The notes beneath the pieces were generated by a model that saw only the letters and a list, made by a program, of their open reading frames with translations, had not been told where the DNA came from and did no database searches. Of a stretch of DNA of 64,000 nucleotides, positions 1,130 through 61,541 are shown piece after piece. A program made the position numbers and the translations under genes. This DNA comes from Eledone cirrhosa (Eukaryota): the NCBI GenBank assembly GCA_964016885.1, contig OZ024759.1, forward strand, positions 23,436,001 through 23,500,000, given 5' to 3'. Positions within the stretch are counted from its first letter, which is position 1. The number at the start of each line of letters is the position of its first letter.

Positions 1130-1238
1130 CTCCAGGTCAGACTGAAAATACGTGGTAAACGTGAATTAGTGATATAAAGAGTTCCATTTGGCATACGAAG
1201 ATCATTTCTATTATTGCCATCATAATCACCACAAAGAC
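1130..1238 (-). CDS. Exon 39: module D VWD end ([13 protein letters not shown]...FSLTWR)
   Basis: aattag|...|gtaagg; 109 nt, phase 1-2; gene continues beyond the window start. Confidence 0.9.

Positions 1239-61541: not shown

Follow-up and report, generated by a model that had tools for sequence, protein, structure and literature searches.

Tandem VWDE-like modules in Eledone cirrhosa form the middle of an ancient molluscan gene that likely encodes a giant membrane protein

The duplicated module architecture found in the stretch of Eledone cirrhosa DNA analyzed here (64,000 nt; contig OZ024759.1, positions 23,436,001 to 23,500,000; hereafter the window) is real, ancient, and common to molluscs, and exists in the databases only as unnamed fragments. 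Our preferred reading, which we regard as probable, is that the window constitutes the middle of one ancient molluscan gene, whose product is likely a giant single-pass membrane protein and is predicted to serve as a multivalent glycan- or matrix-binding scaffold or receptor.

The exon boundaries were set by eye on the minus strand, to which all exons below belong. Splicing by coordinates from 61541 to 1130 showed AG acceptors and GT donors in 39 of 39 exons, the acceptor of exon 4 (56166) being the least canonical, and the spliced exons amounted to 6,893 nt or 2,297 codons with no stop and 105 Cys. Since the exons had been chosen by eye, an open frame is by itself no control; that role falls to an independently annotated Aplysia protein, to which the whole ORF aligns collinearly as described below. 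Exon 1 (61427-61541) is the last exon of module A, encoding its Cys-rich end, and is equivalent to that of gastropod module 4: the three top-scoring tails were all from module 4 (Aplysia, Bradybaena, and Elysia), which was also the best match in the comparison with Aplysia and Bulinus. Module B (exons 2-16, 2,448 nt) opens with two Ig/FN3-like beta-sandwiches (exons 2-4; 59707-59460, 58034-57942, 56166-55765), assigned from splicing, the ortholog model described below, and Pfam Ig_VWDE in Aplysia modules. Then come a VWD domain with C-x-S-x-N-D-P-H and GLCG (exons 5-9; 53581-53505, 52592-52529, 51007-50792, 49430-49328, 48155-48050), recognized from these motifs and from Pfam VWD in orthologous modules, and a Cys linker, a C8-like helical bundle, one EGF, a TIG-like sandwich, and a Cys-rich end (exons 10-16; 45921-45737, 44694-44594, 43271-43116, 39502-39322, 38838-38648, 38323-38114, 37455-37341), assigned from splicing and the ortholog model. 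Module C (exons 17-31, 2,415 nt) consists of two beta-sandwiches with phases as in exons 2-4 (exons 17-19; 36729-36482, 31903-31811, 29748-29356), a VWD domain supported by splicing and motifs (exons 20-24; 26926-26850, 26309-26246, 24841-24632, 24388-24280, 22228-22135), and the linker, helical bundle, EGF, TIG-like sandwich, and Cys-rich end (exons 25-31; 20979-20816, 18629-18523, 17149-16994, 16829-16643, 15699-15509, 14315-14109, 12407-12293), assigned by splicing together with EGF_Teneurin at E=0.002 on exon 29. Module D, as spliced, comprises two beta-sandwiches (exons 33-35; 9089-8872, 7197-7105, 5421-5008) and a VWD domain (exons 36-39; 4499-4362, 3540-3349, 2551-2452, 1238-1130); Pfam VWD, above the cut-off in orthologous modules, reached only E=0.004, under the cut-off, on the single exon 36. 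Neither gene end lies inside the window, and the gene continues beyond exon 39.

Between B and C, the exon phases agreed in 15 of 15 exons and the lengths were equal in 7 of the 15 (248, 93, 77, 64, 156, 191, and 115 nt), and the amino acid identities between modules were 33% (B/C), 33% (B/D), and 34% (C/D). The repeat is 805-816 aa long with a genomic period of 23.0-27.6 kb. The intron at the B-C junction measures 611 bp and that leading from C to exon 32 (12293->11381) measures 911 bp, and the module junctions in the window contain no start, stop, or signal peptide. Each module, like the LamG exon 32, constitutes a phase 1-1 cassette, and skipping it would leave the frame intact. One frame and one gene, the 39 exons, the sizes of B and C, and the 611-bp intron, all claimed by an earlier note on this DNA, were reproduced by splicing. 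Of its at least four 15-exon super-modules, the exon count holds for B and C, but not for D, which has one intron fewer, and the note had overlooked exon 32.

Regarding D, exon 36 (138 nt, 4362-4499) corresponds to exons 5 and 6, or 20 and 21, without their intron; since it fuses two exons of B and C, module D is not a 15-exon copy. The phase-2 intron that divides the NDPH exon from the next in B and C is absent from D, through either loss in D or gain in B/C. The introns are AT-rich and rich in microsatellites and SINEs, with long microsatellite blocks at approximately 41700-42950, 31950-33760, 16170-16640, and 9870-10730, and a tandem array with a unit of ~39 nt in intron 9 (46928-47694, minus strand). 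Immediately upstream of exon 22, at least six degenerate tandem copies of its 5' part, 77-86% identical, occupy 24902-25522 (minus strand); some are preceded by AG and may be decoy acceptors or failed exon duplications. Intron 17 holds an open 485-codon reverse transcriptase of a non-LTR retrotransposon with a YADD motif (34053-35507, minus strand), a second copy of whose 3' end lies near 49690-50190. Weak tRNA-like Rfam matches at 58491-58548, 24020-24077, and 3087-3146 (minus strand) are likely the heads of tRNA-derived SINEs, recurrent in many introns. Within the coding part, the Cys linker of module B contains a Glu/Asp run in exon 10 (45840-45870, minus strand), and Argonauta modules have a similar Asp run there.

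Exon 32 (10731-11381, 651 nt, phase 1-1) encodes a LamG/ConA-like jelly-roll between C and D. As it has no counterpart in B or C, the 12293->11381 junction leads into a LamG insert and D begins at exon 33. Its nearest protein-atlas clusters were Laminin_G_3 (score 0.97), and its predicted structure was an all-beta sandwich (pLDDT 79.8) that matched LamG-type domains in Foldseek at a TM of about 0.6, so that it shows the jelly-roll beta-sandwich of about 200 aa characteristic of the LamG/ConA-like superfamily. By blastp, it matched Aplysia residues 3792-4000 at the equivalent position (E=1e-14), and it also aligned with oyster LamG domains. Pfam gave no match on exon 32 alone, and a homolog search with it, limited to 2,000 aa, found none. 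In a LamG tree, exon 32 was placed with Aplysia and Bulinus LamG1 and two Argonauta domains at 71/86, a placement without firm support. Clostridial neurotoxins in its Foldseek list have only the LamG-type fold in common with it (10-16% identity), and no toxicity is implied. Four of seven listed sequencing runs, three RNA-labelled and one DNA, were compared with 10725-14400; in the DNA run, a 945-nt contig matched 10725-11645 with 0 differences, which demonstrates that exon 32 is real DNA.

To characterize the module, a fold was predicted from a 79-sequence alignment for Aplysia module 5, the ortholog of B, rather than for the spliced sequence of the window. The model had a pLDDT of 91.6 and a pTM of 0.87, and the domains are therefore predicted to pack as one unit. 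Its residues 1-104 and 104-240 form Ig/FN3-type sandwiches at a Z of about 9, near the common-fold level. Meanwhile, residues 242-631 matched MUC2 D3 with a Z of 25.5 (rmsd 3.3 over 245 residues), and mucin/VWF D assemblies in general at Z 20-25; in this predicted ortholog model, the VWD is packed with a C8 helical domain, as is characteristic of tandem D assemblies. The D-assembly-like part is followed by an EGF, a TIG-like sandwich, for which Pfam TIG gave only E=0.003 in one relative and which the fold search barely probed, and a Cys-rich cap. Each repeat is thus predicted to be a compact unit resembling the mucin/VWF D assembly. In addition, the best PDB sequence match of the family profile was FCGBP. 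The VWD domains in the window start with C-x-S-x-[NT]-D-P-H, reading NDPH in B and C and TDPH in D, and the NDPH/TDPH and GLCG motifs each occur three times, D-P-H having been lost in some gastropod modules. GDPH-type motifs of FCGBP and MUC4 undergo Asp-Pro cleavage, with the pieces staying disulfide-linked; by analogy, the Asp-Pro bond of NDPH/TDPH may self-cleave, and the pieces would be held together by disulfides.

Homologs were collected by several searches. A profile of three VWD-core exons retrieved 24 proteins among 724 candidates, including those of Aplysia, Biomphalaria, Crassostrea, Pecten, and Capitella; one aimed at longer proteins recovered Aplysia XP_035827995 (4,956 aa) and Elysia RUS80662 (3,799 aa); and further proteins, from Argonauta, Bulinus, Pecten, Bradybaena, Tubulanus, Lingula, and Haliotis, came from a phmmer search. 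At least two VWD-core matches were present in 16 of the 192 collected proteins, one of the 16 being a fish FCGBP-like protein with VWD only. Pfam reported nothing above the cut-off on 24 of the 39 window exons searched singly; Ig_VWDE (PF25776), without a match on these single exons, was above the cut-off in the Aplysia and Elysia proteins, and weak RGM_C matches appeared in relatives (E 4e-4 and 6e-3). No octopod protein highly identical to B, C, or D was recovered, identity peaking at 48% within short VWD stretches. Two loci came out of a second metagenome scan, and the one examined looks like a single genomic exon.

The window ORF gave one local alignment to residues 2162-4423 of Aplysia XP_035827995 (33.6% identity over 2,215 columns) that covered four junctions, and it aligned to residues 840-3069 of Bulinus KAH9523928 at 32.0% identity, again with the junctions covered; the Aplysia and Bulinus junctions compared are themselves gene predictions. 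In gastropod numbering, A corresponds to module 4, B to 5, C to 6, exon 32 to LamG1, and D to 7. A, B, and D scored best against modules 4, 5, and 7 in both Aplysia and Bulinus, the N-terminal half of D likewise favoring module 7 of each. The raw best scores of C were to M5/M7 and not to M6, the gastropod module 6 being fast-evolving; the top window match of module 6 was C, and the last exon of C matched Aplysia module 6 best. The assignments of C to module 6 and D to module 7 were accordingly made by position. Elysia, Biomphalaria, Bradybaena, Pecten, Crassostrea, and Argonauta likewise carry modules in tandem. Both the tree and the module order identify the Aplysia and Bulinus genes as orthologues, and the models of Elysia, Biomphalaria, Pecten, Crassostrea, and Argonauta likely represent the same gene. 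The analysis bears out what the earlier note had proposed, namely old whole-module tandem duplications of VWDE-like modules in a protein far exceeding 2,300 aa.

The same note had considered the array possibly lineage-specific, and an expansion of a VWDE gene body within the lineage would be consistent with C and D having no supported ortholog in the trees and with the four LamG-module units of Argonauta being at most 36% identical to B, C, or D. The topology was tested on a 22-module maximum-likelihood tree, a subset of a 44-row set analyzed by quick tree; left out of the trees were modules below 350 aa, the majority of the near-duplicate copies from Argonauta and oyster, the three-module protein of Haliotis cracherodii, and several unnamed or fragmentary models. 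In the 22-module tree, B grouped with module 5 of Aplysia, Elysia, and Bulinus at 98/96, and the AU test rejected a clade of B+C+D (p=0.0004) as well as B+C (p=0.004). These results showed that the duplications seen here predate the cephalopod-gastropod split. C joined M6 in the best tree at only 52/32, and D+M7 was not rejected (p=0.43), so that neither C nor D has a supported sister and module-level orthology is firm for B only. Pecten modules grouped with gastropod M2 and M3 at 100/100 and 100/99, from which, at the level of sequence, some module duplications predate the bivalve-gastropod split; the fourth Pecten module scored best against C and not gastropod M4. The order of modules, including the LamG insert, is collinear with Aplysia and Bulinus, and an architecture common to sea slugs and snails is ancient rather than lineage-specific. 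A lineage-specific origin is accordingly refuted for the modules in the window and is very improbable as an account of the gene, with further-downstream expansions being possible. Argonauta has at least four LamG-module units, and their dissimilarity to B, C, and D indicates that module number varies between lineages. Two adjacent models of Argonauta hians, both chains of such units, share about 90% identity across 3,000 aa with gaps counted and reflect a recent duplication or a haplotype copy. Separately, Haliotis cracherodii encodes a VWDE-like protein of three more divergent modules that ends in a TM and may have multiplied its modules independently.

In order to outline the gene beyond the window, public models were assembled: Aplysia LOC101855535 and LOC118477191, Bulinus Btru_047520/047521, Elysia EGW08_011566, Biomphalaria Bpfe_013183, Pecten LOC117339037/8, Crassostrea LOC111133221/2, and Argonauta Ahia01_001047900/001048000. 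All recovered multi-module models were partial and unnamed, and none spans from signal peptide to TM. The earlier note had tied its novelty to the architecture not being already annotated widely across molluscs; it is indeed present in public gene models, but these are unnamed and fragmented. The pieces interlock: in Aplysia, XP_012946827 stops at module position 399 and XP_035827995 picks up at 431, leaving a one-exon gap; the first Pecten model ends at module position 297 and the next resumes at 289, the two contigs having the same length within the Aplysia pair and likewise within the Pecten pair; and Bulinus Btru_047520 and 047521 are adjacent. The joined Aplysia models contain at least seven modules and at least 6,510 aa in the order hydrophobic start, F5/8, M1, PAN pair, M2, PAN pair, M3-M6, LamG, M7, LamG, where the model stops, and Bulinus runs on into an eighth module. 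N-termini with a hydrophobic, signal-like start and F5/8 were found in the Aplysia, Biomphalaria, and Bulinus models. At the other end, oyster XP_078311506 and XP_078310480 read module-LamG-module-LamG-Thr-rich stretch-module-TM-tail with YNNGAF, and the common module-LamG-module pattern suggests that their gene is the one with the PAN-bearing start; the last module of this oyster giant grouped with molluscan one-module proteins in the 44-row quick tree (SH-aLRT 91). The Aplysia pieces plus one more module and the TM end give a minimum near 7,500 aa, composed of pieces from different species, and the full protein is likely, on sequence grounds, at least 7,500 aa long and split in annotations. 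Crassostrea virginica has 64 models that cluster at 90% identity or more, the NCBI ones listed all being located on one 49-Mb contig; here the C-terminal half may have multiplied recently, or the assembly may be redundant.

These ends bear on the location of the product. The signal-like start and F5/8 in snails, together with the TM and YxNxxF tail in oyster, indicate that the protein is likely a type I membrane protein and not secreted; the suggestion of the earlier note that it is a secreted or matrix protein accordingly gives way to the membrane form as the likelier one, judged from the oyster models and the wider family, the window containing neither end. In a family census of 112 representatives with a complete last module, this module was followed by a TM segment in 67; [YF]xNxx[YF] occurred in 13 of these 67 tails, compared with 0.95 upon shuffling (1,000 shuffles, maximum 6). 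The main rival, which we consider unlikely, is that the same ancient giant gene yields a secreted or shed product here, an FCGBP-like scaffold of mucus or matrix with no membrane anchor. It would fit the remaining 45 of the 112 representatives, in which no TM follows the last module and of which 14 end within 40 residues; the 2,297 aa of the window, which include no TM window; the fold, which resembles that of gel-forming mucins, and FCGBP as the closest PDB sequence; and the proposal in PMC7390686 that vertebrate VWDE is an ECM glycoprotein. Against secretion, however, a TM segment lies at the end of all of the closest multi-module relatives whose C-terminus is complete (oyster, Tubulanus, and Haliotis cracherodii) and of the one-module LamG-bearing paralogues (Lingula, Haliotis, Ylistrum, Sinanodonta, Bradybaena, and Bulinus).

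Another alternative, and a quite improbable one, holds that the exons are real but that the locus mainly yields shorter units through module skipping, internal starts, or polyadenylation, with the full giant rare or absent. The phase 1-1 cassettes would permit such skipping, the public models are all partial, and no junction reads were found when the RNA-labelled runs were compared with 10725-14400; these three runs gave only low-complexity matches of 30-38 nt at 14051-14095 and are uninformative on expression. In contrast, the junctions have short introns (611 and 911 bp), contain no start, stop, or signal peptide, and are conserved in sequence with Aplysia, and an 897-aa protein encoded on a 6,491-nt JGI contig extends over the M3-M4 junction, suggesting that the transcript is spliced.

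Returning to the preferred membrane-protein reading, the gene plan, pieced together from other molluscs, would be signal peptide - F5/8 - M1 - PAN pair - M2 - PAN pair - M3-M6 - (LamG - module)n - TM - short tail with [YF]xNxx[YF]. The product would most likely be a type I membrane glycoprotein, and its window part has 32 NxS/T sites. The modules would stack as beads reaching far from the epithelial surface, and the lectin-type folds (F5/8, PAN, and LamG) could give avid binding to mucus, matrix, or microbes. NPxY-type tail motifs couple to endocytic sorting adaptors, and the tail would by analogy link the protein to such adaptors. As to the origin, one-module forms in a brachiopod, annelids, and molluscs and a two-module nemertean form suggest, by their sequences, a one-module lophotrochozoan ancestor, in which the phase 1-1 exon cassette would have been duplicated serially; because the module is such a cassette, every duplication preserves the frame. 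A more far-reaching version, which we advance only tentatively and think rather doubtful, envisages an undescribed molluscan single-pass receptor of ~10,000 residues or more, a self-cleaving, lectin-studded, endocytic-tailed, megalin-like scavenger or glycocalyx tether composed of VWD modules and not LDL-A, hidden because every annotation splits it. If the Argonauta units lie after D, the total would exceed 10,000 aa and octopods would have at least 11 modules, and the protein, if this is true, would be among the longest animal membrane proteins.

Irrespective of its final length, the gene is unnamed, and none of the models recovered is complete. It shows cleanly how a giant protein can grow when a whole multi-exon cassette is duplicated, LamG and PAN having been inserted later and one intron differing between modules. 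That at least seven diverged modules of 800 aa have been retained since early mollusc evolution makes an important role at the cell surface likely. No description of a multi-module molluscan VWDE-like architecture was found in the literature searched, subscription journals and supplements lying mostly outside it. Vertebrate vwde is needed for axolotl limb regeneration (deuterostomes only; PMC7390686), planarian equinox belongs to a different class without VWD (PMC9117669), nine VWDE-labelled oyster genes change upon parasite infection (PMC9679248), and in oyster, Vwde-labelled genes of hepatopancreas and gill cells show a response to virus (bioRxiv 10.64898/2026.05.15.723513). Counts of 'VWDE' genes in mollusc expression studies, such as the nine of PMC9679248, may partly represent fragments of the present gene.

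Among known proteins, the molluscan models share the tandem module of ~800 aa, and those of Aplysia and Bulinus share the order and LamG insert of the window at 32-34% identity over the ORF, whereas module number and one-to-one correspondence differ in Pecten and Argonauta. The one-module lophotrochozoan membrane proteins (Lingula 'mucin-17' XP_013398006, Owenia CAH1799566, and those of Capitella, Haliotis, Ylistrum, Sinanodonta, and Bulinus Btru_034658) share this module, often with upstream F5/8 and LamG, a TM, and often an NxxY-type tail, but the module is single (two in Tubulanus), a layout that looks ancestral. Vertebrate VWDE, compared by domains and absent from the trees, resembles the window gene in VWD and EGF and the Aplysia and Elysia proteins also in Ig_VWDE, and relatives are automatically named 'VWDE-like'. 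PMC7390686 and PMC9117669 describe it as a secreted protein with one VWD and several EGF-like domains; in contrast, the window gene has three VWD domains with one EGF per module and no EGF array after a single VWD, and the mollusc gene has LamG/PAN/F5-8 inserts and likely a TM. Functionally, an analogy extends to megalin/LRP-type receptors in the long repeated ectodomain, the single TM, and the NPxY-like tail of relatives; membership in the LDL-receptor/megalin family was ruled out, as Pfam reported no LDL-A repeats or YWTD propellers in 24 window exons and 22 relatives. FCGBP, gel-forming mucins, VWF, and zonadhesin share the repeated VWD and C8-like unit with Asp-Pro-His at the VWD start, but they have TIL/E and a repeat of ~390 aa, whereas the mollusc repeat of 805-816 aa has three extra beta-sandwiches and an EGF in the place of TIL, Pfam reporting EGF and not TIL in relatives, and no PTS region was found in the window; the repetition is likely independent of that in FCGBP/mucin/VWF.
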